A DNA stretch of 64,000 nucleotides from IMG/VR virus record IMGVR_UViG_2695420523_000009, positions 12,534 through 76,533 of that record; one strand, written 5' to 3'. This document shows, piece by piece, positions 750-50,818 of the stretch. The notes under the pieces were generated by a model. That model was given only the letters and a program-made list of their open reading frames with translations. It had not been told where the DNA came from and made no database searches. Made by a program: the position numbers and the translations under genes. This DNA is from a virus (taxonomy: Duplodnaviria > Heunggongvirae > Uroviricota > Caudoviricetes). Numbering within the stretch: position 1 is the first letter of the stretch; each line of letters starts with the position of its first letter.

Positions 750-2078
750 CTATTGTGCGTACTCGCCCAATTTTAATGTTTCACGCTTATATTCATCAAC
801 TATCTCACATGATTTAATATAGATATGGCACAATAGGTTATCACTATCATCATTATCGTTTATTGCCATAAGTGCCAACTTTTTCTCATATTCATCGATC
901 GCATCACTCAACTGATCACCTGTAATTACATCTGACTCACTCGAGAAATATAACTGCCCAAGATTTACCGCATTTTTTCCAGTTTTTCTTTGCTCTATGT
1001 AATTTTTAATCATATCCTTCACATCCTTTTCACTACTCAGTATTTCACTTTCGAAATGGACATGCTCTGAAATCGACGCGACTCTGCAACCGATCAAACG
1101 ATGAATATAGTCATCAATAGACGTAACACTATCATTAGCTTTTTTTAGTGCTTCATCAAAAATGCTCTTTACCTCATTTGGCAAATTTTTAAAATAATCA
1201 TCAATTAAACCAGATAATGGTGTTTGGTAGTTCATTAATACCGATGAAGCAACTTGCGGACGACGAGCCACCCAGATTTCTTTGACTTCAACTTGAGAAT
1301 AATATTCCTTAATCACGTTCCAAAAGTATTTTAACATCTTGGTTTTAAATATTTTATCAAATCTATCCTTTATAAATAGCTCTACTTCAGGCATGCTTGA
1401 ATAAGCATCATCAAAGAATATTTCATCTTTGAAAAAATCATATTTATTTAATAAAGCATACAGTTTTTTTGAATCCAGCGGTTCACGAGAATCGATGTCC
1501 AATCCAAAAACTGCAATAACCAACTTCATTTGCGGTGGTATTTTTCCACTCAATTGAATAATATATTCCATTTTTTCATCAAAACAATTTCCATCTATGT
1601 AAAATCGGTTATCTACATAGACTAATATATTGGTAATATGTTTTATGTACTGAATAACCTCATGCTTTCTTACCAATGGATAAAAAAACGAATGCATTTC
1701 ATTTTTATTAAATTGTTTTTTTGTCTGTTCAATGATTGGTATGACATTATTGTACAACTCATCATGCTGATTTAATAAAGTGTCAAACCATTCTTTGAAA
1801 GAATTTTTTCTCATCTCAATCAATGAATCGGTAGTTATCCTAACGGCCTCCAGTGCTGCCTTTGCACTTTTTCTTGCTTCATAGGCGTTCCACGCTGTTG
1901 CACAAAAAGCCGCTGTCGTTATAAAACTACTCAATACAGCAATTTGGTCTGTAACCTTCCAATCTTGAAATGGCTCAAGTAGTAAACCTAAAAACAAAAT
2001 TATTATGGAAAACATTAGAATTGCAACAGAAATAAAAACAGGCATGTATGCTCTCGTACTTACCATTGTTAGTTGCAT
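750..2078 (-). CDS. membrane-anchored hypothetical protein (2 predicted N-terminal TM helices); candidate abortive-infection/defence cargo
   Basis: 442 aa ORF, clearly more AT-rich than the phage backbone; hydrophobic N-terminus (PVFISVAILMFSIIILFLGLLL) then a large soluble Lys/Asp/Glu-rich domain; no catalytic motif recognised. Confidence 0.6.
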   Translation of the reverse strand: MQLTMVSTRAYMPVFISVAILMFSIIILFLGLLLEPFQDWKVTDQIAVLSSFITTAAFCATAWNAYEARKSAKAALEAVRITTDSLIEMRKNSFKEWFDTLLNQHDELYNNVIPIIEQTKKQFNKNEMHSFFYPLVRKHEVIQYIKHITNILVYVDNRFYIDGNCFDEKMEYIIQLSGKIPPQMKLVIAVFGLDIDSREPLDSKKLYALLNKYDFFKDEIFFDDAYSSMPEVELFIKDRFDKIFKTKMLKYFWNVIKEYYSQVEVKEIWVARRPQVASSVLMNYQTPLSGLIDDYFKNLPNEVKSIFDEALKKANDSVTSIDDYIHRLIGCRVASISEHVHFESEILSSEKDVKDMIKNYIEQRKTGKNAVNLGQLYFSSESDVITGDQLSDAIDEYEKKLALMAINDNDDSDNLLCHIYIKSCEIVDEYKRETLKLGEYAQ

Positions 2079-2140
2079 TAAATATTAACTAAATTAAGTT
2101 GTGATTAACAGGCAAGTTTACGATGTATTGCAGACATTAA

Positions 2141-2161
2141 ATAGGTTTTTACTTACCTATC
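2141..2161. promoter_or_regulatory. intergenic palindrome (TAGGTA/TACCTA family) upstream of glutaredoxin gene
   Basis: ATAGGTTTTTACTTACCTATC, arms ATAGGT/ACCTAT; member of a recurrent motif family (see findings). Confidence 0.4.
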
Positions 2162-2217
2162 TTTTATAGTAATATTTATTTTCTGGTTAAGTAACACATA
2201 ATTATTATGAGGTAAAC

Positions 2218-2463
2218 ATGACTATCGTTATCTACGGACGAGATAACTGCTCATATTGCAAACGTGCGGTCGAGCTGGCGAAACAACTAAAGGGACACGG
2301 CTATGGTGATTATGAGTACATCGACATCACCACTGCCGGTATCGATAAGGAAAAACTTAGCGAAATTGTTGGCAAACCGGTAGAGACTATCCCCCAGGTA
2401 CTGATCGATGGCCAACCGATTGGCGGATACACAGAACTGGCTGCATACGTCACCACTCTCTAA
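2218..2463 (+). CDS. glutaredoxin (Grx1/NrdH-like redoxin)
   Basis: 81 aa, CSYC active-site motif, GKPVETIPQVLIDGQPIGGYTEL closely resembles E. coli GrxA; RBS GAGG upstream; hairpin terminator follows. Confidence 0.85.
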   Translation: MTIVIYGRDNCSYCKRAVELAKQLKGHGYGDYEYIDITTAGIDKEKLSEIVGKPVETIPQVLIDGQPIGGYTELAAYVTTL

Positions 2464-2468
2464 TTTTA

Positions 2469-2493
2469 ACGGCTCACAGGAGCCGTTTTTGTT
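2469..2493 (+). terminator. rho-independent terminator
   Basis: ACGGCTCACAGGAGCCGT hairpin followed by TTTTGTT. Confidence 0.7.
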
Positions 2494-2542
2494 CCCACCA
2501 AACTCACGCTTGGTTCCCTTAAAATTCAAAAAACAACGGCTA

Positions 2543-2575
2543 AATGATTCCATACCTACTATGTATGGAATCATT
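2543..2575. repeat. perfect 13-7-13 inverted repeat (AATGATTCCATAC-ctactat-GTATGGAATCATT); candidate recombinase core site
   Basis: Exact 13-bp inverted arms with 7-bp spacer, about 100 bp upstream of the tyrosine recombinase gene; lox/dif-like architecture. Confidence 0.5.
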
Positions 2576-2673
2576 ACTGAAAATGAGTTACTTTTACTCT
2601 TGATCCTATAAGAATCTATGCCTAATATACTGTTTACTTATACAGTGAATCGGCGTAACTCGGTGATTGTCAT

Positions 2674-3777
2674 ATGAAAAATAGCTTTGACAGAGCACGC
2701 GCTGCGGAGAACACCTCAAAAGAGGCGATTGAGTATCTCGAAAGAGCATCTCAAATGCAGGCCGTTATGATCTCGCAGGTTAGCAATGATATGAGATTCT
2801 CGGACGCATTCATGTTATTTACTCGCTTATCTCTGCTGATAACCAGACGTCGGCCAGAGATCGCTGTTCATTGTATTTTGATACATGTTTTGCCGCACAT
2901 TGCCGATGTAAAAGTAAGTGACATTAATAGGTTCATGGTGAACCAACTGGTCAACCCACTAATACTGGATGGCAAAATTGTTATGGGCCGCCGCGTTTTC
3001 TCTCTGATGAAGCAGTTCCTTAGCTGGTGCGCCTTCCAGGGGATGATAGACGTGTCACCGTTAAACGATATGTCACTAAACAAAGTTGCCGGTGGCGCAA
3101 AGCCCACACCTCGCGAGCGGAAGCTGACCGACGCAGAGGTATGGGTGTTCTGGAATATATGGGACTACTTCAATGTGTGCGCTGGTACAAAATGGGCGGC
3201 CAGGCTGTGTCTTGTATCCGCAAGACGACCTGACGAAGTACTGCGGGCTAAAAAAAGTGAGTTCAATCTTAAGCGTGGGGTTTGGAATCAAGGCAAGAGG
3301 AACAAATCTGCCCGTGAGCATTCGCTGCCTTTAAGCACATTAATGCGCACATGTATTGAAGAGTTGTTCGAATACGGTAAAGGCAGCCAGTGGCTCGTGC
3401 CTTCGAATAAAAAAATCGGGAAAGATCTTCCTATGTCTAAAGTGGCAATAGCCCAGGCATTACGTCGTATCCTGGAACGACCAGAACTGATGGAGCTTGA
3501 GCCATTTACACCCCGAGACTTGCGCCGTACTGCGCGTAGTTACTTCCCAGCATTAGGCATAAGCCAGGAGGTATCACGCAAAATCATGAACCACAGTCTT
3601 GAGGGGATAGATCGAGTCTACGACCGGCACGATTATATGGACGAGATGCGAGACGCCTTAGAAAGTTTCTCGACGTACATCGCATCAATCGTAGAGCAAC
3701 CGGATTTAGACGAAATTGACCACAAATTCAAGGGAGATCGTCTATCAACAGAGCTTATTCGTGTAAATTTTTCATAG
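2674..3777 (+). CDS. tyrosine recombinase (phage-integrase family, core-binding + catalytic domains, no arm-binding domain)
   Basis: Catalytic signature ARRPDE ... RDLRRTARS ... NHSLEGIDRVYDRHDY (R-H-R-Y); 367 aa, lacking the N-terminal arm-type DNA-binding domain of P4-like integrases. Confidence 0.85.
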   Translation: MKNSFDRARAAENTSKEAIEYLERASQMQAVMISQVSNDMRFSDAFMLFTRLSLLITRRRPEIAVHCILIHVLPHIADVKVSDINRFMVNQLVNPLILDGKIVMGRRVFSLMKQFLSWCAFQGMIDVSPLNDMSLNKVAGGAKPTPRERKLTDAEVWVFWNIWDYFNVCAGTKWAARLCLVSARRPDEVLRAKKSEFNLKRGVWNQGKRNKSAREHSLPLSTLMRTCIEELFEYGKGSQWLVPSNKKIGKDLPMSKVAIAQALRRILERPELMELEPFTPRDLRRTARSYFPALGISQEVSRKIMNHSLEGIDRVYDRHDYMDEMRDALESFSTYIASIVEQPDLDEIDHKFKGDRLSTELIRVNFS

Positions 3778-12532: not shown

Positions 12533-13561
12533 ATGTCTAAGACATTACTTGATTTGCTTAACAAAACTCGTGAAGACATTGCCGCCAAACGTGGTAACAA
12601 CGTTGATCTGACTCGCTTAAAAGACGGCGTCAACTATATCCGCATCTTCCCGAATAAAGACGACCCAAACGGTAAGTTCTTCCAGACTTTCGGTATGCAC
12701 TACGTTAAGTATCAGAACGAGGAAGGTAAAGAAGCAACCAACGCTTATATTTGTGAGCAACATACTCACGGTCGCGCTTGTCAGCTATGCGAAATGGTGA
12801 TGGAAGGTCGCGCTCGTCACAAGGGTAACAAAGCAATGGAAGAACGCATCGGTCAAATGCGTGCCACTCCTCGCTACCTGGTCAACGGCATTCTTTCTGC
12901 TCGTGAGGATTTCGCAGATGCTGAGAAATGCCAGTTAATCGAGCTGCCGTCTACTGTATTCGATGATATCTGCAAAGCAATCACCGAAGACATCGCTGAT
13001 GATATCGGCAATCCACTGAGCAAAGAGGAAGGCTACGCATTCCTGATTAAACGTACTGGCTCTGGTCGCGATACCAAATATGACGTCTCGCCTAAGCGTA
13101 AAGTCTACAAAGGCGATATCGAAGATAAATTCTGGAATACCCAGCATGATCTGATCGCATACGCAAATCAAGCTGATGAAACTCGTCTTCTGTCGACAGT
13201 TCGCACTATGGGTCGTCTGATTGGCATCGCTGCACCAACTGCCGCAGCATCTGCACCAGCAATTTCCTCAACCGCGAAAACATCGGCTGCGGCACTACCT
13301 GGATTTGGCTCTGTCACTGGTCATACGGAGGGTGCGACTGCTGTAGCTACCGCTCATACCCCAGCTTCTGAACCAACCAGTCTGGTTGATGAAGAAATCC
13401 TCCGTGCCGTTGAAACTGAATTTAAACCAGAAGCAAGTCCCGCTGCCGTTGCAGTATCAGTCAAAGAGTCTGAAGCAGTCGCAGCGACATCTGTAGCAGC
13501 CGCATCTGCGACGGAAGATGAAGGTCTGGATGACCTACTGAGAGAGCTGGACTCTCTGTAA
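12533..13561 (+). CDS. single-stranded DNA-binding protein, T4 gp32-like
   Basis: IRIFPNKDDPNGKFF resembles gp32 IRFLPSKNDE; Zn-site-like C-x2-H-x-H-x3-C-x2-C (CEQHTHGRACQLC); Ala-rich linker and acidic C-terminal tail (EDEGLDDLLRELDSL). Confidence 0.7.
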   Translation: MSKTLLDLLNKTREDIAAKRGNNVDLTRLKDGVNYIRIFPNKDDPNGKFFQTFGMHYVKYQNEEGKEATNAYICEQHTHGRACQLCEMVMEGRARHKGNKAMEERIGQMRATPRYLVNGILSAREDFADAEKCQLIELPSTVFDDICKAITEDIADDIGNPLSKEEGYAFLIKRTGSGRDTKYDVSPKRKVYKGDIEDKFWNTQHDLIAYANQADETRLLSTVRTMGRLIGIAAPTAAASAPAISSTAKTSAAALPGFGSVTGHTEGATAVATAHTPASEPTSLVDEEILRAVETEFKPEASPAAVAVSVKESEAVAATSVAAASATEDEGLDDLLRELDSL

Positions 13562-17126: not shown

Positions 17127-17552
17127 ATGACAGTTATTAAGAAACTCTACGATGCCGCAAACGTGGCTCTGGATGTTATTGATGATGAAGTAGCAAAAGG
17201 CTTTCCTGAACCTGATTGGGCGCATCAGCTACGAAACGCTATCGCAGAAATGACCCCACCAGATCCAACCCCCGACGAGACAGACTGGCAGCGATTCATC
17301 CGTATGTACGCTCAGGAAATAGGTCCAACGCCAACGGCAGAGCAGGCAATGCTGCTGAAATACTTCAAAGAGGCGGGAGAGGATTTACCAATTGATGACT
17401 CAGCATATTGGTTCCACTGCGCATGGCGTAAGTATGACGTGATATTCACACAAGGCATGGGAAGCAAAGATATGGTTGTGTGGCATCTACTCCATATAGA
17501 CACAGCCGTTGACAGAGTTATTGAACAGTTTTTCCCTAAACAAGAAGATTGA
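17127..17552 (+). CDS. hypothetical protein
   Basis: 141 aa ORF, RBS AAGGATAAGAAAAC. Confidence 0.55.
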   Translation: MTVIKKLYDAANVALDVIDDEVAKGFPEPDWAHQLRNAIAEMTPPDPTPDETDWQRFIRMYAQEIGPTPTAEQAMLLKYFKEAGEDLPIDDSAYWFHCAWRKYDVIFTQGMGSKDMVVWHLLHIDTAVDRVIEQFFPKQED

Positions 17553-17607
17553 TCGCCTATTCATAACTAACAAAATAAGTAAACACTAACCACAAAAGGA
17601 AAAACAC

Positions 17608-17883
17608 ATGAGAGTTTTAGTTCGAATCGTTACCAGCACTGTCTATGACGTGTTTCCGCTTTTTATGGTCAAAGTCGATGGCCTTAACGATGAAGAAACT
17701 GACGCGCTGATCCAGCGTACTCTTGTTGAATATACAGGTCATGACGCTGATTCAGTGATGGTTGATGATGATGGTGTTTGTTGGCATAACGGCAACTGTT
17801 GGTACGTAGAAGAGACTCAACAAATCAGTAATGAAGATGCTGAACATCTTGAGCGTATTTTAAGCATCAGCACTTTTGAGTGA
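17608..17883 (+). CDS. hypothetical protein
   Basis: 91 aa ORF with conserved initiation context AAAAGGAAAAACACATG. Confidence 0.55.
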   Translation: MRVLVRIVTSTVYDVFPLFMVKVDGLNDEETDALIQRTLVEYTGHDADSVMVDDDGVCWHNGNCWYVEETQQISNEDAEHLERILSISTFE

Positions 17884-17922
17884 GTTTACAGTAAAGTTTA
17901 TATAAGTTAGTATCTACCTATC

Positions 17923-18102
17923 ATGAAGATTTTTATTGAATACTTGTTACTCATCGTTTCAATAGCTTTTGTCATCGACTGCATTTTCACTGGTGTCATT
18001 CGTAAAGTCTTTTCCCCGGTGCACGACGTAGTCATAAACGCTTTGGCTATCGTGCTCGTATTTAATTCAGCATTTGATGTAATCAAAGAGGTGGCAGCAT
18101 GA
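17923..18102 (+). CDS. hypothetical small hydrophobic protein
   Basis: 59 aa ORF (below ORF-track cutoff) whose stop overlaps the next start (ATGA); hydrophobic. Confidence 0.35.
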   Translation: MKIFIEYLLLIVSIAFVIDCIFTGVIRKVFSPVHDVVINALAIVLVFNSAFDVIKEVAA

Positions 18103-18434
18103 AGGCCATCCCATTCGCTCTGTTGTTCCTTTCCTCGATCGTTGTGGCCGACACCACTGTTTATCAGTGTGAAATGTCTGTAGCCGACGTTAAGAATGGC
18201 GCTCTTACCGACGTCATAAAAGCACCATATGGAGCGATGGTCGTAGACAGCGGCGACCAGTTCTATGTTGTGCGTGACGATCGAGTATTGTCATCCCCAT
18301 ATCTCACAAACCGTAATGGCAAATTAACCGGCGTCGGAGAAGACCACTTCGTATACAACAAATACAAGGGCTTCTATGGCGTGCACGCTTCTCAGCAAAG
18401 CTACCTTTTCGATGACTGCAAGGAGGTTGGATAA
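18099..18434 (+). CDS. hypothetical secreted protein (signal peptide)
   Basis: N-terminal MKAIPFALLFLSSIVVA signal-peptide-like segment; RBS AAAGAGG. Confidence 0.55.
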   Translation: MKAIPFALLFLSSIVVADTTVYQCEMSVADVKNGALTDVIKAPYGAMVVDSGDQFYVVRDDRVLSSPYLTNRNGKLTGVGEDHFVYNKYKGFYGVHASQQSYLFDDCKEVG

Positions 18435-18646
18435 TGGCATTAACACTGGCAGGTCTGGAAATCGAGAAAACAAGCGGATACTGGCGTGCTAAGGGTTTCA
18501 AGCAGCCTGGCATTCTTGAGCGTCTGGAACGTGAAGATGGGTATATCGTCCACCAGCGACGTGAATGGCGTATGTACGATCCAGAAACAGGAAAACTGAC
18601 TACAAAAGCCGGAACACTTTGGGGTCTGTTGAAGAAAATACACTAA
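18434..18646 (+). CDS. hypothetical protein
   Basis: 70 aa, start overlaps upstream stop (translational coupling). Confidence 0.45.
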   Translation: MALTLAGLEIEKTSGYWRAKGFKQPGILERLEREDGYIVHQRREWRMYDPETGKLTTKAGTLWGLLKKIH

Positions 18647-18655
18647 TAGCACCAA

Positions 18656-19129
18656 CCACTGCGGTGAGTAGCCAGCTCACCGCATTCGTATCAGCTCATT
18701 ATCCACTGTGGTCTGCAGTCCTCTCTTCCTACATATCTGCTAACCACTGTAGCGAGTAGACAGCCTTTCATTCGCATCAAACAACCACTATGGTGAGTAT
18801 TGGAGTGAGATGTCCAGCGGGTATCCACTATGGTGAGTAAGCCTTTGCTGTTTTCAGTGGATATCCACTCGCCACAGTGGATACGCTCAAAGATGAGGGC
18901 GACAACAACCACTATAGACAGTGAATTTTCCAAGATACCCAGTGACCACTAACCTCGCAGCCCTTGTTTCATCAGTGTTAGTGATCACTAACATTTAATT
19001 CAGTATTTGCATTCTACTGCCTACAGTGGTTATCAACAGATAACGATACTCATTATAGTGGATAGCGAATTACAGATATAAGTAAGGCTCACTACAGTGG
19101 ATAGTGAGCCTTACTACTAACTACAGTGG
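18656..19129. repeat. iteron-like repeat array downstream of repA (incA-like)
   Basis: About 11 copies of CCACT(A/G)T(G/A)G / CTA(C/T)AGTGG cores (e.g. 18703, 18745, 18785, 18825, 18909, 19021, 19053, 19092, 19121) in two orientations at 30-47 bp spacing. Confidence 0.65.
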
Positions 19130-19134
19130 TTGGG

Positions 19135-20190
19135 CTATTTGCGAGTCTTTGCCTTGCGCAACTCTTCGAGAAGCGCCAGTTCTTCTTTACTCAACATGAC
19201 CATTTTGCCTTCTTTTTCGTCAGGCACAACGTCGATAATGTCATCTTGATTCTCATCTGGGAGGCTATATTCCGTCTCATCATTATCGATTTTTGTTGAT
19301 ATTTGTGCCTGGCGTAACTTTGGCCGCCTATAGTGGATGACGAAGTAGACCGAGTTTCCGCGCTTAACTTCCGTGTAATCGAGATATCCTATCTCTCGCA
19401 GCTGTTCCATAGCCTTTCTTACCGTCGCATTCTGAGTAATAGTGCGACTTGTCAGATTAAGTCTGGCGCGTAAACGGGCTAGTGATATTGGTGCCGGATC
19501 AGGCGGCAAACTTTCAATAAAAGTATAAAGCGCCTGAGCGGATTCTTTTCTTGAGAGTTCGTTTATAGCCCGGAGTTGCAGAAGAACCTTTTTGTCGAAC
19601 TGGTAGAGTTCGAAAATCTTGGGATCTGCTTTCAGTTCGACCGTATCGTGCTTGACACTATATTTTGCCGTTTGCACAAGATGCGTTACGTAAAACTCAT
19701 CAGAGCCTTTGCTACGGAACGAGATGGTATTTGTGGCAATACGGCTTAGCGAACTGTCCAGGCGTTTGCGTAACTTCGCTGATGACCTGGCGGTCGGAAT
19801 GCCACACAGTCTTACAAACTCAACGAACGGCAACGTGACAGTATCGCCAACGACCTTGTGTTTGGCAAACGCGTGGATTATTCCCACCCACGTTTTAAAG
19901 TCGTTATCCATATCAAGCCGAAGGCCAGAGATCCTTATGTCTTCGTACCCTTCGGCTTTTGCCAGAGACAGCTGTTTGAGTTCAGCAGAGGCATCCATAG
20001 AGACCATTTGCCCCTTTCTTCCTCTGGATGTCGATTTCAGCGTCGGAACGAAGAGGCCCAGACGCATCAAAGCAACAGGCTGAACAGTGTTATTAGTGTT
20101 AGGAACCAACGTAACAACTTCGCCTGTCTTTTTATCTGTTTCTGAAAATGCTTCAACGATCGCTATGTTTTTATTGCCGTTTTCGCTCAT
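19135..20190 (-). CDS. repA: plasmid-type replication initiator, RepA-like (iteron-binding; RepFIB/P1 RepA family suspected)
   Basis: 351 aa; N-terminal [17 protein letters not shown] motif recalled from RepFIB/P1-type RepA; flanked on both sides by iteron arrays. Confidence 0.75.
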
Positions 20191-38252: not shown

Positions 38253-38290
38253 NNNNNNNNNNNNNNNNNNNNNNNNNNNNNNNNNNNNNN
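38253..38290. other. assembly gap (run of 38 N)
   Basis: Literal N characters in the sequence. Confidence 1.
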
Positions 38291-43373: not shown

Positions 43374-43511
43374 ACGCTACAAATCCTTCGGCATGAATAA
43401 ATAAAGGCCATAAGTTGTGGCCTTAAATAAATTGTTTTCTACCTTTTCTTATTTGTGAAAATAAACCAGCACTTGGTAGTGCTTATGTAACAGCAAAGAA
43501 GAGAAAAACAC

Positions 43512-44012
43512 ATGAGTAACAAAATCGAAAACCCCGTAGTTCTCATTCACAAGCGTGAGAACCACGACTCCTATGCGGTGGCGATCACCAATGGGAGTCA
43601 CGATTATTACGATGGTCTGCTAATGGCCTCAGTGTCGCCTGATGAGGCAGACAACTCTTTTGCCGTCTTCGCTATGGTTGGTTACTACATGGCTGCCGAA
43701 ATTGAGAAGTTGCGGGCGCAGAGAGACGCATTAGCGGCGGAGAATGCAGCCCTGAAAGAATCTGAGCGAGCATTCGATGAGATGTGTGCCGACGAACACG
43801 GAGATAATTGGGTTAGCGAATTAACGGAGACTCCAGCCACCGATGCTTTTCTGGCTGAAGTACGTGCGCAAGGCGTGGATATGGCTCGTAACGCGATGAT
43901 TGATTTTGTTGATGGTGAAGTTGGGCCAAACAAGAACGTTCCGGGGCTGATTAGAGGCGCAGAGATATGCGTAAGTATTGCTGAACAGCTTCGTAAAGGA
44001 GTCGAAGAGTGA
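43512..44012 (+). CDS. hypothetical protein
   Basis: 166 aa, start context AGAGAAAAACACATG. Confidence 0.55.
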   Translation: MSNKIENPVVLIHKRENHDSYAVAITNGSHDYYDGLLMASVSPDEADNSFAVFAMVGYYMAAEIEKLRAQRDALAAENAALKESERAFDEMCADEHGDNWVSELTETPATDAFLAEVRAQGVDMARNAMIDFVDGEVGPNKNVPGLIRGAEICVSIAEQLRKGVEE

Positions 44013-44230
44013 ATAAAGCAGAGTTATTTCAGAAAATATCGGCTCTCGCGACTGAATGCCACGCTATAGCATCTGAGTTTGATGTTGGCGATGAACGAAC
44101 CGAGATGTTCGAAATATACAGTGTGCTGCGCAATCTCTGTCGGCGTGGCTACGCCACTCAAGTAGGGCGAATGACTAACCCACTACTCTCATCCTGTGAT
44201 GAGGATGACTCGGATGAGGATGACGAATGA
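44009..44230 (+). CDS. hypothetical protein (acidic C-terminus)
   Basis: 73 aa, GTG start overlapping upstream stop. Confidence 0.4.
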   Translation: MNKAELFQKISALATECHAIASEFDVGDERTEMFEIYSVLRNLCRRGYATQVGRMTNPLLSSCDEDDSDEDDE

Positions 44231-44898
44231 TGCATAAATCAGTAGCCGGTGAGTTTCAGAAGGAAGTCGATAATACCACTGATCTATTGGACGATATTTT
44301 AAGCATTCTCGCGCTGCTTGAGGCTGGCGATTGGTCAGAACATTGCACTAAAACAGAGCTAGGCGGTCGGCTTGAAAGAGAGATTACACGACTTATTGGT
44401 GATGCGCAGGAAGCTACAGTCACTAGTTATGAGTTAATCGCTGAAGCCTGGCGTTTGATGGATGGACAAGATCCTAAAACCAGCGATTGGCATAGCAAGG
44501 CTTCGAAGTATTTAAATTCCGATAGGGTAGAAAAAGTTGATGATGTGAAACCGAAGCCAGTAGACCACGGTTTCCGCGATAACTGCGAATGCTCTAGTTG
44601 CCAGACCACGGCCCGTATTTGTTCCGAATTGACAGATAAGTCCAGCCTAATCTACGAAGTTAATGTAGGCGGTAATACATGGGTCGAATGCACAAGAGCT
44701 GCATACGTAAGAGCAAAAGACAAGGGTGAATTAACCAGAGTTGTTGCCCATCACCCAAATAATGAGCTTAAAGATCACCAGATTAGAGAACTGGTGAATG
44801 AGTTGCGGGATATTGCGGTTCAGTACCACGGAACGCAGCAATTGCGGGAGAAAATTGCCAGAGCAGTGAACAACTCAATTAGATCAGAAAGTATGTAG
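44227..44898 (+). CDS. hypothetical protein
   Basis: 223 aa, overlapping start/stop with upstream gene. Confidence 0.5.
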   Translation: MMHKSVAGEFQKEVDNTTDLLDDILSILALLEAGDWSEHCTKTELGGRLEREITRLIGDAQEATVTSYELIAEAWRLMDGQDPKTSDWHSKASKYLNSDRVEKVDDVKPKPVDHGFRDNCECSSCQTTARICSELTDKSSLIYEVNVGGNTWVECTRAAYVRAKDKGELTRVVAHHPNNELKDHQIRELVNELRDIAVQYHGTQQLREKIARAVNNSIRSESM

Positions 44899-45334
44899 TC
44901 AATACAATAAAATGGCCCCATTTGGATGGGGCCGGTAACAACTAGCATTATGGGCGCTGGTTGACGTACTCAATGATCGCTTCGATGATTGCGAACATAG
45001 GCGGCACGATTTTGAAAAGTAAGTTAAGCACTATAGGCCTCACTTAGTTTTATCGCACCTAGCTGCAAATACCTTTGAGCTTGCCTTTGCAGTTGCAATA
45101 TCTGTAGTCGCCAGATACTTACGGCACGATTTCGAGTTAAGGTAAGGTTTTAGAGTCACCAAAAACCTGGACTTAAATCTTCTTTGAGAACAACGATGTT
45201 TGGTAAATGGTCATTATTACCTAGCATGACGGCTCAACGTTTCTTGATGAATCCAGTACATTCGGTTAATCTTAGCTCAGTCGCCAGATACTTATGGCTC
45301 AGGAACAGAGGCGCAAACTCTGTTTCCTTTTAAA

Positions 45335-45363
45335 AAGCCCAGCCTAGTCAACTGGGCTTTTTT
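45335..45363. terminator. bidirectional rho-independent terminator
   Basis: AGCCCAG ... CTGGGCT stem flanked by AAAAA on the left and TTTTTT on the right. Confidence 0.6.
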
Positions 45364-45658
45364 AATGTCCGTTTTTAACCAAATGTACCCACAATACCGC
45401 AACATCAGTGTCTTGCGAATTAAGATAGGATTTATAGAGACTATGTGCAAGTGCATAACTTTGTGGATAACTCGTAAAGGAAAAAGTGGTTTCCGCGGAC
45501 ATTAGTTCAGACAAGGAGTCTGGGAAAGTCAATGGGAAGTAAAAATTTGTTAAAAATAACGTTTGTTGGAATTGTATATATTTATGCCTTTCAATAGTTA
45601 GCATCTTATTAACATCTTTTTTAAGAGATAGAGTTCAAAAATATATAGCTTCAACATA

Positions 45659-45678
45659 TACTGTATGCATATACAGTA
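45659..45678 (+). promoter_or_regulatory. LexA (SOS) box
   Basis: TACTGTATGCATATACAGTA matches the CTGT-N8-ACAG consensus; 17 bp upstream of the UmuD'-like start. Confidence 0.8.
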
Positions 45679-45694
45679 TTAAGAGGCGAGTATT

Positions 45695-46084
45695 ATGGGC
45701 TTCCCTTCTCCTGCGGCGGATTATGCTGAGAGCCGTATTTCTCTTGATCAGCAGATAATTAGACATCCTTCAGCGACCTACTTCATGAGGGCGGCTGATA
45801 GTCATCATCGTGAGGGAATATTGCAGGGTGCATTGCTGGTGGTCGATTCCTCACTGACTCCTGTTGATGGATCTCTTCTTGTATGTGCTCTGGATGGGGA
45901 ATATCGCGTAAAAAGATACCGGAAGTATCCACGTCAGCATCTGGAGGATTTAAGAACTGGTAAGAAGGAAGCATTGCCAAAGGATGATGATGGATGCACG
46001 GGCAGCAATGCCGTGTTTGGTGTGATCACTCACATTATCAACGACGCAAGAAGTGGCGAGTTTGATGATTGTCCTGTGATGTAG
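45695..46084 (+). CDS. UmuD'-like protein (S24 peptidase family; pre-processed UmuD analogue, HumD-like)
   Basis: Starts MGFPSPAADY, equivalent to UmuD just after its Cys24/Gly25 cleavage site; HPSATYF, DS (Ser) and VK (Lys) catalytic positions retained; RBS AAGAGG; SOS box upstream. Confidence 0.75.
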   Translation: MGFPSPAADYAESRISLDQQIIRHPSATYFMRAADSHHREGILQGALLVVDSSLTPVDGSLLVCALDGEYRVKRYRKYPRQHLEDLRTGKKEALPKDDDGCTGSNAVFGVITHIINDARSGEFDDCPVM

Positions 46085-46096
46085 GAGAACTGTTTA

Positions 46097-46121
46097 GGTG
46101 GTGCATTGCACCACCTTTTTA
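46097..46121 (+). terminator. rho-independent terminator
   Basis: GGTGGTGCATTGCACCACC hairpin followed by TTTTTA, abutting the mrp stop codon. Confidence 0.65.
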
Positions 46122-47222
46122 TCACACTGCGCGGAATGCGATTTCGCCAGGTATTACTTCACCTTGCCAATACATTTGGGCAGCAACGCGATCTGCGAGG
46201 TCACGATAAATAGCCGTAAATTCGCTATCTGGACGACTAATAACGGTTGGTGTTCCGTTATCCAGATCTTCACGAAGAGAGATATGAAGTGGCATTTGGC
46301 CTAACAACTGCGTGTTGTATTTCTCGGCCAGTTTCTGTGCGCCACCGGTGCCAAAAATTGGCTCGTGATGACCGCAGTTACTGCAAATATGCACACTCAT
46401 GTTTTCGACGATACCTAGTACCGGCACTTCGACTTTTTCGAACATCACAATGCCTTTCTTCGCATCGATCAGCGCGATGTCTTGCGGCGTAGTTACCACA
46501 ACCGCACCAGTTACAGGAATGTTCTGCGCCAGCGTCAACTGAATATCACCAGTGCCCGGCGGCATATCGAGAACGAGATAGTCCAGATCAGGCCATAGAG
46601 TTTCCTGCAACATCTGCATCAGCGCCTTGCTGGCCATCGGTCCACGCCACACCATTGCATTGTCGTCGGTGACCAGATAACCAATAGAGTTGGTTGCCAG
46701 GCCATGAGACATGATAGGTGCCATGTGAGTACCGTCAGGTGAGGTTGGACGTTGGTTTTCCGCGCCCAGCATGGTTGGAATTGATGGACCATAGATATCG
46801 GCATCCAAAATACCAACTTTCGCACCTTCAGCAGCCAAAGCCAGTGCCAAGTTTACTGCTGTGGACGATTTGCCTACACCGCCCTTGCCTGAGCTTACGG
46901 CGATAATATTCTTAACACCATTAATGCCTGGTTGGTTTTTGACGCGCTTAAGCGTGGCAATGTTGTACGACAGCTTCCAGTCAATAGCCTTTGCGCCAGT
47001 GATACGGAGCAGATCACCACTACATTGCTCTTTCAGGTCTTCAAAAGGCTTATTCCACACGAAAGGCATGATTAGTTCGACATGCAGTGTGTCATCCATC
47101 AACGCAACATGGTGTAACGCTTTAAGCGTAGTCAGGTTGTGTTTCAGGGTTGGGTGCTGAAAATTAGCCAGCGTACCGGCTACCATTGCTCTCAGGGCAT
47201 CCGGCGATTTGGACTCGCTCAT
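46122..47222 (-). CDS. mrp: Fe-S cluster carrier ATPase Mrp/ApbC
   Basis: Protein essentially identical to E. coli Mrp as recalled (GKGGVGKSSTAVNLALALA, CSNCGHHEPIFG); RBS AAGGAG. Confidence 0.95.
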   Translation of the reverse strand: MSESKSPDALRAMVAGTLANFQHPTLKHNLTTLKALHHVALMDDTLHVELIMPFVWNKPFEDLKEQCSGDLLRITGAKAIDWKLSYNIATLKRVKNQPGINGVKNIIAVSSGKGGVGKSSTAVNLALALAAEGAKVGILDADIYGPSIPTMLGAENQRPTSPDGTHMAPIMSHGLATNSIGYLVTDDNAMVWRGPMASKALMQMLQETLWPDLDYLVLDMPPGTGDIQLTLAQNIPVTGAVVVTTPQDIALIDAKKGIVMFEKVEVPVLGIVENMSVHICSNCGHHEPIFGTGGAQKLAEKYNTQLLGQMPLHISLREDLDNGTPTVISRPDSEFTAIYRDLADRVAAQMYWQGEVIPGEIAFRAV

Positions 47223-47379
47223 CCCGTCTCCTTTATTTTAATTTGCGCAATTGTCGCCTTGTAGTGTACTCCAGCTGCGACATTTAATCATTTATGAGAA
47301 ATGCTGTTATCACATGGCAGACATAAGGCCATTTTGTTACTATCAAGCCCCTTTTCACTACAAAGAAGTAATGCCTACT

Positions 47380-49413
47380 ATGACCCAAGTCGCGAAGAAA
47401 ATTCTGGTGACGTGCGCGCTGCCGTACGCTAACGGCTCAATCCACCTCGGCCATATGCTGGAGCACATCCAGGCTGATGTCTGGGTTCGTTACCAGCGAA
47501 TGCGCGGCCACGAGGTTAATTTCATCTGTGCCGACGATGCCCACGGTACGCCGATCATGCTGAAAGCACAGCAACTTGGTATCACACCGGAGCAGATGAT
47601 TGGCGAAATGAGTCAGGAACACCAGACTGATTTCGCAGGCTTTAACATCAGCTATGACAACTATCACTCGACGCACAGCGAAGAGAACCGTCAGTTGTCT
47701 GAGCTTATCTATACTCGCCTGAAAGAGAACGGTTTTATTAAAAATCGCACTATCTCTCAGTTGTACGACCCGGAAAAAGGCATGTTCCTGCCGGATCGTT
47801 TTGTGAAAGGCACCTGCCCGAAATGTAAAGCGCCAGATCAATACGGCGATAACTGTGAAGTTTGCGGCGCGACCTACAGCCCGACTGAACTGATCGAGCC
47901 GAAATCGGTGGTTTCTGGTGCTACCCCGGTAATGCGTGATTCTGAACACTTCTTCTTTGATCTGCCCTCTTTCAGCGAAATGTTGCAGGCATGGACCCGC
48001 AGCGGTGCGTTGCAGGAGCAGGTGGCAAACAAAATGCAGGAGTGGTTTGAATCTGGTCTGCAACAGTGGGATATCTCCCGCGACGCACCTTACTTCGGTT
48101 TTGAAATTCCGAACGCGCCGGGCAAATATTTCTACGTCTGGCTGGACGCACCGATTGGCTACATGGGTTCCTTCAAGAATCTGTGCGACAAACGCGGCGA
48201 CACTACCAGCTTCGACGAATACTGGAAGAAAGACTCCACCGCCGAGCTGTACCACTTCATCGGTAAAGATATCGTTTACTTCCACAGCCTGTTCTGGCCT
48301 GCCATGCTGGAAGGCAGCAACTTCCGCAAGCCGACCAACCTGTTTGTTCATGGCTATGTGACGGTGAACGGCGCGAAGATGTCTAAGTCTCGCGGTACCT
48401 TTATTAAAGCCAGCACCTGGCTGAATCATTTTGACGCTGACAGCCTGCGTTACTACTACACTGCGAAACTCTCTTCGCGCATTGATGATATCGATCTCAA
48501 CCTGGAGGATTTCGTTCAGCGCGTGAATGCCGATATCGTGAACAAAGTGGTGAATCTGGCGTCCCGTAACGCGGGCTTTATCAATAAGCGTTTTGACGGT
48601 GTGCTGGCAGGCGAACTGGCTGACCCGCAACTGTACAAAACCTTTACTGATGCCGCTGAAGTGATTGGTGAAGCATGGGAAAGCCGCGAATTTGGTAAAG
48701 CGATTCGTGAAATCATGGCGCTGGCTGATCTGGCTAACCGCTATGTCGATGAACAGGCTCCGTGGGTGGTGGCGAAGCAGGAAGGACGCGATGCCGATCT
48801 GCAGGCGATTTGCTCTATGGGCATTAACCTGTTCCGCGTGCTGATGACGTACCTGAAACCGGTACTGCCGAAACTGACTGAACGTGCAGAAGCATTCCTG
48901 AATACAGAACTGACCTGGGATGGTATCCAGCAACCGCTGCTGGGCCATAAAGTGAATCCGTTCAAGGCACTGTATAACCGTATCGATATGAAACAGGTGG
49001 AAGCACTGGTGGAAGCATCCAAAGAAGAAGTGAAAGCCACAGCTGCACCGGTAACTGGCCCACTGGCTGACGACCCGATTCAGGAAACCATCACCTTTGA
49101 CGACTTCGCCAAAGTTGACCTGCGTGTGGCGCTGATTGAAAACGCGGAGTTTGTCGAAGGTTCTGACAAACTGCTGCGCCTGACGCTGGATCTCGGTGGT
49201 GAAAAGCGTAATGTCTTCTCAGGCATCCGTTCCGCTTATCCAGATCCACAGGCACTGATTGGTCGTCACACCATTATGGTGGCTAACCTGGCTCCGCGTA
49301 AAATGCGCTTCGGTATCTCTGAAGGCATGGTGATGGCTGCTGGCCCCGGCGGGAAAGATATCTTCCTGTTAAGCCCGGATGCCGGTGCTAAACCAGGCCA
49401 TCAGGTTAAGTAA
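47380..49413 (+). CDS. metG: methionyl-tRNA synthetase
   Basis: From [26 protein letters not shown] (HIGH motif) through KMSKS and the C-terminal tRNA-binding domain, collinear and near-identical to E. coli MetG (677 aa); start set to the internal ATG 47380. Confidence 0.97.
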
Positions 49414-49432
49414 TTAAACAACCTCTCTTCGC

Positions 49433-49461
49433 AATGCCCGGCAACACGCTGGGCATTTTCA
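49433..49461 (+). terminator. rho-independent terminator (metG)
   Basis: AATGCCC ... GGGCATT stem followed by TTTC. Confidence 0.6.
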
Positions 49462-49496
49462 TATAGACACAATCCCTCCTGATTTACACAAGCCCT

Positions 49497-49512
49497 AAAA
49501 CAATTTGTTTTC
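49497..49512. promoter_or_regulatory. AAAACAA-N-TTGTTTTC palindromic motif (copy 1)
   Basis: AAAACAATTTGTTTTC, near-perfect palindrome. Confidence 0.5.
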
Positions 49513-49546
49513 TACCTTTTGTTGATTGAGATAATAAGCCACATAA

Positions 49547-49563
49547 GAAAACAAATTGTTTTG
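49547..49563. promoter_or_regulatory. GAAAACAA-N-TTGTTTT palindromic motif (copy 2)
   Basis: GAAAACAAATTGTTTTG, 12 bp upstream of the ATG at 49575. Confidence 0.5.
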
Positions 49564-49574
49564 GAGTGGTTGAA

Positions 49575-49874
49575 ATGTTGAACATTACCCAAGCCTACCA
49601 GGTGGCATTGATCAGTTCATCTCATACATCAGAGGAAGATGCTCGCCGATTCATGATCGCAAGCAATGAGCTGGATTGGGTTTCACAAATTGACGGCGGT
49701 TGTATTGTCCACGCCGGGTTACAGGATGATGTCTGGAAAGAGGACTTGCGTCGATATGGTATATCCGAAGGCGCGATTGCTAACATTCAGAAAGTACTTG
49801 ATGTAGGCTTTGACTCTGTACATTTTGATTGTGGTGCACCGGTCGTTGAAGGGCTAGAGTGCTGGCAATGGTAA
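49575..49874 (+). CDS. hypothetical protein
   Basis: 99 aa from ATG 49575 (RBS GGAGTGG); ORF-track start 49566 is a GTG inside the RBS. Confidence 0.5.
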   Translation: MLNITQAYQVALISSSHTSEEDARRFMIASNELDWVSQIDGGCIVHAGLQDDVWKEDLRRYGISEGAIANIQKVLDVGFDSVHFDCGAPVVEGLECWQW

Positions 49875-49910
49875 TCCGGCAATCGCTTCATACTAGACAA
49901 CGGAGAATTT

Positions 49911-50096
49911 ATGCTTAAAGAAGACTCATATCTACTAAAGGCGCTTGAAATGCGTGGCGTTGAACCTACAGTGAAAAACGCTCACGATATCTACCTTCAG
50001 TTTTCACCGGAGCTGAAACGGTTCATAAATCAATACGGGGTTAATGACTCAAGTGTTAAAGCAATGATAGATGATGAATTAGACCATCTCATCTAA
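49911..50096 (+). CDS. hypothetical protein
   Basis: 61 aa, RBS GGAG. Confidence 0.4.
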   Translation: MLKEDSYLLKALEMRGVEPTVKNAHDIYLQFSPELKRFINQYGVNDSSVKAMIDDELDHLI

Positions 50097-50248
50097 TCGT
50101 TTCCTATGATAATGGTTTTCACTTTGAGATTGTTATTTTTCATAGCTAAAGCTGATGTTTGTGGAAGGTGAATTGATAAACGGATGCGTATTTAGGTTAT
50201 ACAAGTGAGAAAATTGATAATATATAAACGCGATTTTTATGTGATGGA

Positions 50249-50818
50249 ATGGATGTGATGGAAACCCAGAACCAACAAACAAAACCTCTGAATAACATTT
50301 ATGCGTGGATTCTAGCGTTCATGCCTTTCTTCTTTGGAGTATCGCCGGAAGAGTATACCAATTACGCTATTATAATTGGGGGTGTAACTACCATCGGTTT
50401 GTTAGTAGCTGACAGAATGGCTCTATCGGAGTCTGGCTGTGAACCACCTTCAATTCTATGGGGGGTATTCCTCCTGCCTGTCTATCTCTGGAAGCGCGCG
50501 ACTATTACAAAAGGCAGCAGAGTGCCATTTATCATAATCGTTGCGTCGCTGGCTTGGATTATCTTCATCGGCATCCCACACAAGGACGAGGTTGCTCTTG
50601 AAGAAGCAGCCTGCCCTCTCGTGACAACTATTCTGAAAGAGAATAACGGTTCGACTGCACCAAAATGTATGAAGGTGACAATAGAGGACAAGGTGACGGA
50701 TAAGTTCTATAGAGCAACGGCTACACTAGACAATGGTAATGACATTAACATTACTCTGGAACTTACCGGCGACAGGAACTTCTACGTCCGTGTTCCAAAT
50801 GTTTATCTGAACAACTAA
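50249..50818 (+). CDS. hypothetical membrane protein
   Basis: 189 aa with 3-4 hydrophobic segments; preceded by an AT-rich spacer. Confidence 0.5.
   Translation: MDVMETQNQQTKPLNNIYAWILAFMPFFFGVSPEEYTNYAIIIGGVTTIGLLVADRMALSESGCEPPSILWGVFLLPVYLWKRATITKGSRVPFIIIVASLAWIIFIGIPHKDEVALEEAACPLVTTILKENNGSTAPKCMKVTIEDKVTDKFYRATATLDNGNDINITLELTGDRNFYVRVPNVYLNN

Follow-up and report, generated by a model that had tools for sequence, protein, structure and literature searches.

An apbC–metG cassette as probable long-standing accessory cargo of SSU5-supergroup phage-plasmids in Escherichia and Shigella

Why does the genome of a tailed phage encode a methionyl-tRNA synthetase (MetRS), and how did it come by the gene? 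The question is raised by a 64,000-nucleotide (nt) stretch of a virus of the Caudoviricetes (IMG/VR record IMGVR_UViG_2695420523_000009, positions 12,534 to 76,533; hereafter the window, numbered from its first letter), in which the MetRS gene metG is divergently paired with apbC (mrp), the gene for an Fe-S cluster carrier P-loop NTPase. A first-pass annotation, made from the sequence of the window, took the pair either for a segment of host chromosome captured by the element or for the sign of a chimeric contig. Our analysis points to a different history: the 3.4-kb apbC–metG cassette is probably an old piece of accessory cargo of the Escherichia and Shigella SSU5-supergroup phage-plasmids, which most likely acts through the dosage of MetRS and ApbC. 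The coordinates of the features discussed below are collected in Table 1.

The identities of the two genes are as first called, and both open reading frames (ORFs) are intact and divergent. In a protein alignment, the MetRS is identical to MetG of Escherichia coli K-12 at 668 of its 677 residues (98.7%); it scores 1018.9 bits on the NCBIfam equivalog NF001100 over residues 4-677 (cut-off 587) and 696.7 bits on TIGR00398, and displays the Pfam domains tRNA-synt_1g, Anticodon_3 and tRNA_bind. Its H22-L-G-H25 and K333-M-S-K-S337 motifs and the zinc-knuckle cysteines C146/C149/C159/C162 (numbering from Met1) are the same as those of K-12. The longest mechanical ORF for this gene begins at a TTG at 47251, and it is the alignment with K-12 that sets the start at the ATG at 47380. 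The ApbC protein matches K-12 Mrp at 346 of 365 aligned residues (95%), with an N-terminus shorter by 3 residues; it scores 759.3 bits on the equivalog NF008669 (cut-off 348), matches Pfam PF10609, and retains an intact deviant Walker A motif (GKGGVGKS) along with the CSNC (C-x-x-C) cluster-binding motif.

The pair and its surroundings recur across a large set of related elements. Plasmids from 104 complete E. coli genomes are colinear with the interval 44000-50500, both junctions included, at 96-98% identity (the top 20 listed are all plasmids, 72-120 kb in size), and the block is present in 190 PLSDB plasmids, those inspected being 62-120 kb in size. An ApbC protein at least 99% identical to that of the window is found in 189 plasmid records, whose hosts are E. 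coli, Shigella, E. albertii and E. fergusonii, while a set of 5,426 complete E. coli genomes gives 219 plasmid-borne matches (~4%) to a 301-nt segment of metG. The block likewise occurs in the phage records Cyrano, CMS-2020a and PhiR41_1, the last with MG1655 listed as its host. The cassette occupies the same slot, between an SOS-boxed humD gene and an ORF of the DUF5983 family. Single alignment pieces extend across both junctions, for instance, in NZ_CP023851.1 (96.6% over 44000-50500) and NZ_CP027358.1 (98.7% over 45600-49600). A side observation from PLSDB is that CP061244.1, a 1.41-Mb E. coli “plasmid”, carries an apbC–metG pair of the chromosomal type and looks mislabelled.

By its sequence, the window belongs to the SSU5-supergroup phage-plasmids, specifically to the type of pECOH89, which has been described as an SSU5/pHCM2-related phage-like plasmid (PMC3999498). 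Positions 30000-54999 are 98.1% identical to pECOH89 (NC_023916.1) and 98.3-98.4% to KY515224/KY515225, over 94% of that interval, and the same apbC–metG cassette is annotated in these three elements, which differ from the window in carrying an ISEcp1-blaCTX-M-15 insertion. From the near-identity to both complete phage (Cyrano, PhiR41_1) and plasmid records, the phage structural genes and the plasmid replication and partition genes would be expected to lie on the same replicon. SSU5 itself was in the searched phage collection, yet was not among the MetRS hits, and the ApbC protein search recovered no intermediate copies on Klebsiella or Salmonella phage-plasmids; the cassette thus marks the Escherichia/Shigella branch. 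The first-pass view that an aminoacyl-tRNA synthetase is very unusual for a phage applies to phages generally but not to this lineage, where the cassette is standard and phage-plasmid-borne metG is already known and published, though the announcement of pECOH89 (PMC3999498) is without mention of metG.

The boundaries of the cassette are set by a related plasmid, pBL12EC-1, which aligns to the window up to 46084, the stop codon of humD, and again from 49484, with a 744-bp DUF4145 gene in place of the intervening sequence. The cargo slot is thus 46085-49483. The chromosome-derived extent of 44940-49480 that had been proposed at first is accordingly too wide, as 44940-46084 comprises a non-coding region and a P1-type humD module. 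The phage-type character assigned to the flanks was correct, both sides being phage-plasmid backbone.

How does the cassette relate to the chromosomal locus? The K-12 mrp(apbC)–metG locus (b2113-b2114) resembles it in having the same two genes in divergent orientation, in the proteins (98.7% for MetG and 95% for Mrp) and in the 47 nt before the metG ATG. It differs in DNA identity, in the spacer (131 nt as against 157 nt here, mostly unalignable), in the region 3′ of metG and in its neighbors: the flanking chromosomal genes yehE and yehF are both missing around the phage-plasmid cassette. The statement that the pair is near-identical to K-12 therefore fits the MetG protein only and not the DNA, in which metG is 94.1% and apbC 81.3-81.8% identical, whereas the corresponding values for Shigella flexneri versus K-12 are 97.6% and 98.8%. 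The pair is hence not recently transferred E. coli chromosomal DNA, its identities being outside the range of the species and its flanks without homology. For the chromosomal comparison we scanned GTDB species-representative genomes and retained 80 enterobacterial loci, and a search among these for a donor of apbC returned none above ~83% nucleotide identity, so that no donor was identified. One further record, CP170191.1, titled Enterobacter hormaechei B56, gave identity values for apbC, metG and the spacer that are exactly those of K-12, and it too looks mislabelled.

The two genes differ strikingly in their synonymous divergence (dS) from chromosomes. That of metG is 0.29 to K-12 and 0.29-0.41 to every Escherichia species, comparable to the 0.34 separating K-12 from E. 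albertii. For apbC, dS is ~1.8 against E. coli and ~1.4-2.1 against Escherichia, which makes Escherichia as distant as Citrobacter, and Salmonella is farther than either Escherichia or Citrobacter, with dS saturated. Within Escherichia, the dS of apbC is only ~1.7x that of metG, for which reason a single common age cannot account for the divergence of both genes on the phage-plasmids. The ratio of nonsynonymous to synonymous divergence (dN/dS) against chromosomes is ~0.02 for metG and apbC alike. The GC content of third codon positions (GC3) in apbC is 0.50-0.54 on the phage-plasmids, as opposed to 0.59-0.63 on Escherichia chromosomes (0.59-0.76 over all chromosomes), which is consistent with long residence in an element of 46% GC.

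Each amino acid difference of the window MetG from K-12 is present in some chromosomal Escherichia allele, none is phage-plasmid-specific, and at residues 319 and 538 it is K-12 that is the outlier; judged by its dS, metG behaves as a member of the allele pool of the genus Escherichia. In ApbC, ~20 substitutions are fixed on the phage-plasmids, of which 9 are unseen in any sampled chromosome, most of them within the N-terminal 90 residues. We propose that the cassette derives from an enterobacterial chromosomal mrp(apbC)–metG locus but has long resided on these elements, the synonymous sites of apbC being saturated relative to every sampled chromosome and its composition having drifted toward the lower GC of the element. 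The notion of a captured host segment thereby stands as evolutionary history but not as a recent, K-12-like capture, given an apbC dS of ~1.8 and at most ~83% nucleotide identity. In short, related elements share the block as a conserved segment whose sequence has diverged and is not that of the host, the outcome that the first-pass annotation had itself named as refuting its reading.

Within the divergent spacer, conservation with Escherichia chromosomes (89-94%) is confined to the 47 nt that adjoin the metG ATG (47333-47379); they include TGT-TACTAT at 47335-47343, a candidate extended -10 promoter. To that extent the promoter region is shared with K-12, as had been suggested, but the rest of the spacer is not: taken whole, its 157 nt are ~78% identical to Citrobacter-type spacers in blastn searches and show no full alignment to those of Escherichia. 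At the other end of metG, the presumed K-12 terminator could not be recovered. The K-12 alignment breaks down right after the stop codon, and because of this the downstream hairpin (Table 1), itself a candidate terminator that the terminator scan missed on account of its short T-run, is not that of K-12 metG. The space between humD and apbC, whose 3′ ends converge, holds another, GC-rich hairpin, which is likely the humD terminator. Over 44800-49700, the promoter and terminator scan gave counts not above those of shuffled sequence and was informative only for this humD-side hairpin.

Has the cassette been maintained by selection on the elements? We compared ten phage-plasmid copies of each gene. 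In apbC there are 59 segregating sites, and the polymorphic codons divide into 56 with synonymous changes only and 1 that changes the amino acid; in metG, with 206 segregating sites, the corresponding counts are 190 and 9. All ten copies have intact reading frames. As the changes are almost all synonymous, both genes have been under strong purifying selection while on the elements and are selected cargo. For the aminoacylation activity of the MetRS, the metG counts and the dN/dS of ~0.02 against chromosomes provide indirect evidence.

The same ten alleles, together with eight chromosomal Escherichia alleles, formed a panel in which metG proved to be mosaic. The closest relative of the window, a plasmid of E. 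coli 2013C-4991, has 1 difference from it in 45100-48122 (3023 nt) and 50 in 48123-49427 (pairwise alignment over 45100-50100); this jump at ~48123 places a breakpoint inside metG. Individual metG alleles of phage-plasmids hold tracts far nearer to chromosomal alleles than to any other allele of these elements. For a tract of the PK8276 metG, the count per 200 nt is 1 difference from E. ruysiae versus 14 from the nearest phage-plasmid allele, and for 301 nt of the PhiR41_1 metG the best matches in complete E. coli genomes are chromosomes, at 98.0-98.3%. Among the apbC windows of all the phage-plasmid alleles examined, none comes within 8% of a chromosomal allele. The metG gene would thus be an Escherichia-type allele that recombines among phage-plasmids and shares tracts with chromosomal metG; being ~94% identical to the host copy, it apparently still recombines with it, while apbC, at ~82%, apparently does not.

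These patterns lead us to suggest, tentatively and with doubt somewhat outweighing confidence, a module that evolves at two speeds, in which apbC is the older, phage-plasmid-adapted partner and metG is kept host-like by recurrent exchange with chromosomes, with the phage-plasmid possibly shuffling metG alleles among lineages. In favor of apbC as the older partner are synonymous sites saturated relative to all chromosomes, a GC3 shifted toward that of the element and a protein near-invariant across the 189 records. If this were true, the phage-plasmid could shuffle alleles of an essential translation gene, possibly including tolerance alleles, between Escherichia and Shigella lineages, and ApbC could contribute to the function of the cassette as an equally selected component. 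This two-speed evolution is the only aspect of the system that may be new.

What, then, could the cassette do? Taken together, the evidence favors a second MetRS and ApbC that are functional, wild-type-like and under a regulatory region of their own. We propose that it most likely acts by dosage, providing the lysogen with extra wild-type-like MetRS, along with ApbC, which would be expressed from a putative native-type promoter of its own at the copy number of the phage-plasmid. According to Tam et al. (medRxiv 10.1101/2024.10.27.24316207, as cited in PMC12452169), metG borne on phage-plasmids of Shigella sonnei promotes tolerance to antimicrobials, with a subpopulation surviving them, and its expression yields a subpopulation with a predisposition to gain resistance to third-generation cephalosporins. 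The gene described there is likewise an extra metG on an SSU5-supergroup element of Shigella/E. coli, as far as the citing paper tells, and we infer that the cassette is the same. The S. sonnei plasmid p38 (NZ_CP099775.1) is 98.1% identical to window positions 30000-54999 and carries the same apbC–metG cassette, its metG allele differing from that of the window at 49 of 2034 nt and by 1 amino acid. The name of the S. sonnei element, pWPMR2, comes from a 2025 survey (bioRxiv 10.1101/2025.09.12.675607), which reports pWPMR2-like SSU5-group phage-plasmids from S. sonnei as well as from E. coli CC131, CC23 and CC73.

The action by dosage, rather than through an altered enzyme, is suggested by a MetRS with neither a phage-plasmid-specific change nor a persistence mutation. 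The known chromosomal metG alleles that cause persistence are G263S/S264F (metG83/87), a deletion of ETIT 569-572 and a frameshift at 630 (metG630), and these published changes lower MetRS function or expression (PMC11004401). They concern the same enzyme and the same class of phenotype as is claimed for the phage-plasmid copy; however, they are hypomorphic or editing-defective, whereas the window MetG is free of all of them and wild-type in appearance: it is full-length, with G263-S264 and ETIT 569-572 unaltered. Were the proposal correct, an infectious mobile element with a working essential translation enzyme could alter the antibiotic survival of its host without a classical resistance gene. 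Resistance-gene screens miss such metG cargo, and the cassette is also present in epidemic S. sonnei.

Several points weigh against this interpretation. Since the persistence alleles of PMC11004401 reduce MetRS, it is not obvious that an extra wild-type copy should raise tolerance; the tolerance phenotype and its mechanism reach us second-hand, through the citing paper PMC12452169; that pWPMR2 carries exactly this cassette is something we infer; and the dosage effect is deduced from sequence comparison. ApbC is conserved even more tightly than MetG, yet the tolerance account, in the form in which it is cited, omits ApbC. On the evolutionary side, the mosaicism comes from a small panel (ten plus eight alleles), and the shared tracts may have moved in either direction.

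The foremost alternative, though an unlikely one in our estimate, is that the cassette primarily serves the phage, as an auxiliary set in which MetRS and ApbC sustain translation and Fe-S maturation during lytic growth or in slow, MetRS-limited hosts, with tolerance as a side effect. It would offer a better account of the conservation of ApbC, agrees with the extreme purifying selection on both genes, and finds further support in the housekeeping-type nrdB, thyA, DHFR, RNase H and Dam genes near the cassette and in the presence of the latter in records deposited as phage genomes, one with MG1655 as host. MetRS-like genes are also seen in some jumbo phage records, of which Microcystis phage MaAM05 is an example. 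Set against this are the retention of a chromosomal-type promoter region, the accessory nature of a slot that in a relative holds an unrelated gene, and the lack of a MetRS hit in SSU5 itself. In the course of these searches, we rejected “Acinetobacter phage MD-2021a” as a case of a phage MetRS, as it is a chromosome-like whole-genome shotgun contig with dcd, pfs, mrp, metG and efflux genes and looks mislabelled; likewise, several short “phage” records matching MetRS look like host fragments.

Second copies of aminoacyl-tRNA synthetases on mobile elements are often inhibitor-resistance genes. One could accordingly imagine that the second MetRS shields the host when MetRS is attacked by a natural inhibitor or a toxin. 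The precedents include the plasmid-borne isoleucyl-tRNA synthetase MupA, likewise an extra enzyme of this kind on a mobile element, and MupA and MupB are listed as exceptions in NCBIfam. Nevertheless, enzymes of the MupA type are divergent and inhibitor-insensitive, whereas the MetRS protein considered here cannot be told apart from normal alleles of Escherichia: it ranks as a standard equivalog, and no fixed MetG substitution lies outside the ordinary chromosomal Escherichia range, which leaves only a titration effect and makes this explanation improbable.

More doubtful still is the view of the pair as host DNA in transit, a chromosomal piece taken up recently from the present E. coli host through, for instance, illegitimate recombination or transposition. 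The 98.7% identity of the MetG protein to K-12 and the gene order and divergence of the chromosomal mrp–metG locus speak for it. The view is refuted by the DNA identities to K-12 (only 94.1% for metG and only 81% for apbC), the missing yehE and yehF flanks, the end of homology at the metG stop codon, and the recurrence of the same cassette and junctions in ~190 plasmids from four species; in addition, the junctions of the cassette showed no borders of an insertion sequence (IS) or transposon.

As for an assembly chimera, in which a chromosomal piece was mis-joined into a phage-plasmid scaffold, we give it next to no credence, and for the lineage it is refuted. The run of N at 38253-38290 that had aroused suspicion is indeed present (38 nt, a scaffold gap), but it is ~7.8 kb from the cassette, lies within an otherwise colinear match to complete plasmids and is unrelated to the cassette. 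Closed circular plasmids (NZ_CP023851.1, NZ_CP027358.1) match the block and both junctions colinearly, each in one alignment piece, and phage genomes reproduce them as well; the alleles of the cassette are of the plasmid type, not the chromosomal type. For annotation, the lesson is that an apbC–metG pair on a ~110-kb non-conjugative plasmid is a lineage marker, rather than contamination or misassembly. Finally, a neutral hitch-hiker without selected function is refuted by the ratios of synonymous-only to changing codons (56:1 in apbC and 190:9 in metG) and by the intactness of all frames, and can be set aside with near certainty.

Table 1. Positions of the cassette genes, their signals and the flanking features in the window.
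Feature	Coordinates	Strand	Remarks
Conserved non-coding region upstream of humD	44940..45650		Backbone, outside the chromosomal cassette
LexA (SOS) box CTGTATGCATATACAG	45661..45676	+	19 nt upstream of the humD start; CTGT-N8-ACAG pattern
humD (UmuD-like S24 peptidase)	45695..46084	+	Left border gene; NCBIfam NF051876 HumD equivalog, 219.8 bits
Cargo slot with the apbC–metG cassette	46085..49483		3399 bp
GC-rich hairpin then TTTT	46096..46116	+	Between convergent humD/apbC 3′ ends; 9 pairs, 6 G-C
apbC/mrp, Fe-S cluster carrier P-loop NTPase	46122..47222	-	366 aa
Divergent intergenic region	47223..47379		157 nt between apbC and metG
metG, methionyl-tRNA synthetase	47380..49413	+	677 aa, full length including the C-terminal tRNA-binding domain
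Recombinant tract versus closest relative (plasmid of E. coli 2013C-4991)	48123..49427	+	50 differences
Hairpin AATGCCCGG-CAACACG-CTGGGCATT then TT	49433..49459	+	20 nt past the metG stop; candidate terminator, predicted from sequence
DUF5983-family ORF	49566..49874	+	Right border gene; Pfam PF19419, E=8.6e-11; adjoins metG in relatives too

The flanks of the cassette add to the picture of a variable region. The humD module on the left (45446-46084), which includes the LexA box and would hence be under the regulation of LexA, is 83-85% identical at the nucleotide level to humD of P1, P7, D6, RCS47 and SJ46; this similarity suggests an exchange of modules between P1-type and SSU5-type phage-plasmids. 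Upstream of it, the conserved region 44940-45650 has no annotated coding sequence in relatives, in which its identity is ~90-100%, and is covered to at least 80% in 83 plasmid records. Its features include a 20-nt direct repeat, AGTCGCCAGATACTTAYGGC, at 45106 and 45279, as well as a terminator-like hairpin with a T-run at 45341-45358, and it may represent a small RNA or have a regulatory role. No Rfam family was found at gathering thresholds; at E<=1, 44800-45750 gave sub-threshold matches only, namely an RNAI-like one at 45276-45365 (24 bits versus a gathering threshold of 47, E=0.05) and one to RF02278, a toxic-sRNA family, at 45321-45365 (E=0.11). A tRNA scan of the whole window returned none.

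A second variable segment relative to pBL12EC-1 lies at 43483-45586, where ~2.1 kb of the window (the ORFs of 43512-44898 and non-coding sequence) correspond to 330 bp in that plasmid; together with the cargo slot, the surroundings of humD look like a hot spot for accessory genes. When relatives were checked for IS elements inside the cassette, none was found between apbC and metG, and ISEcp1-blaCTX-M-15 and ISKox3 were found upstream of humD, ISKox3 at 98 bp and the ISEcp1 cassette at ~2.3 kb, that is, a few kb from apbC–metG. The loci of such insertions are in S. sonnei p38, NZ_CP099775.1 (extracted locus 17309-19702), and E. coli J-8 pCTX (extracted locus 2043-3263). These insertions near humD indicate that the neighborhood of apbC–metG also collects resistance cargo. 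In the 62-kb E. albertii plasmid p3RM15112 (CP043255.1), the apbC–metG pair and its right flank are kept while genes for a GNAT acetyltransferase and a polysaccharide deacetylase replace humD; this plasmid may be a reduced phage-plasmid derivative that has retained the cassette.

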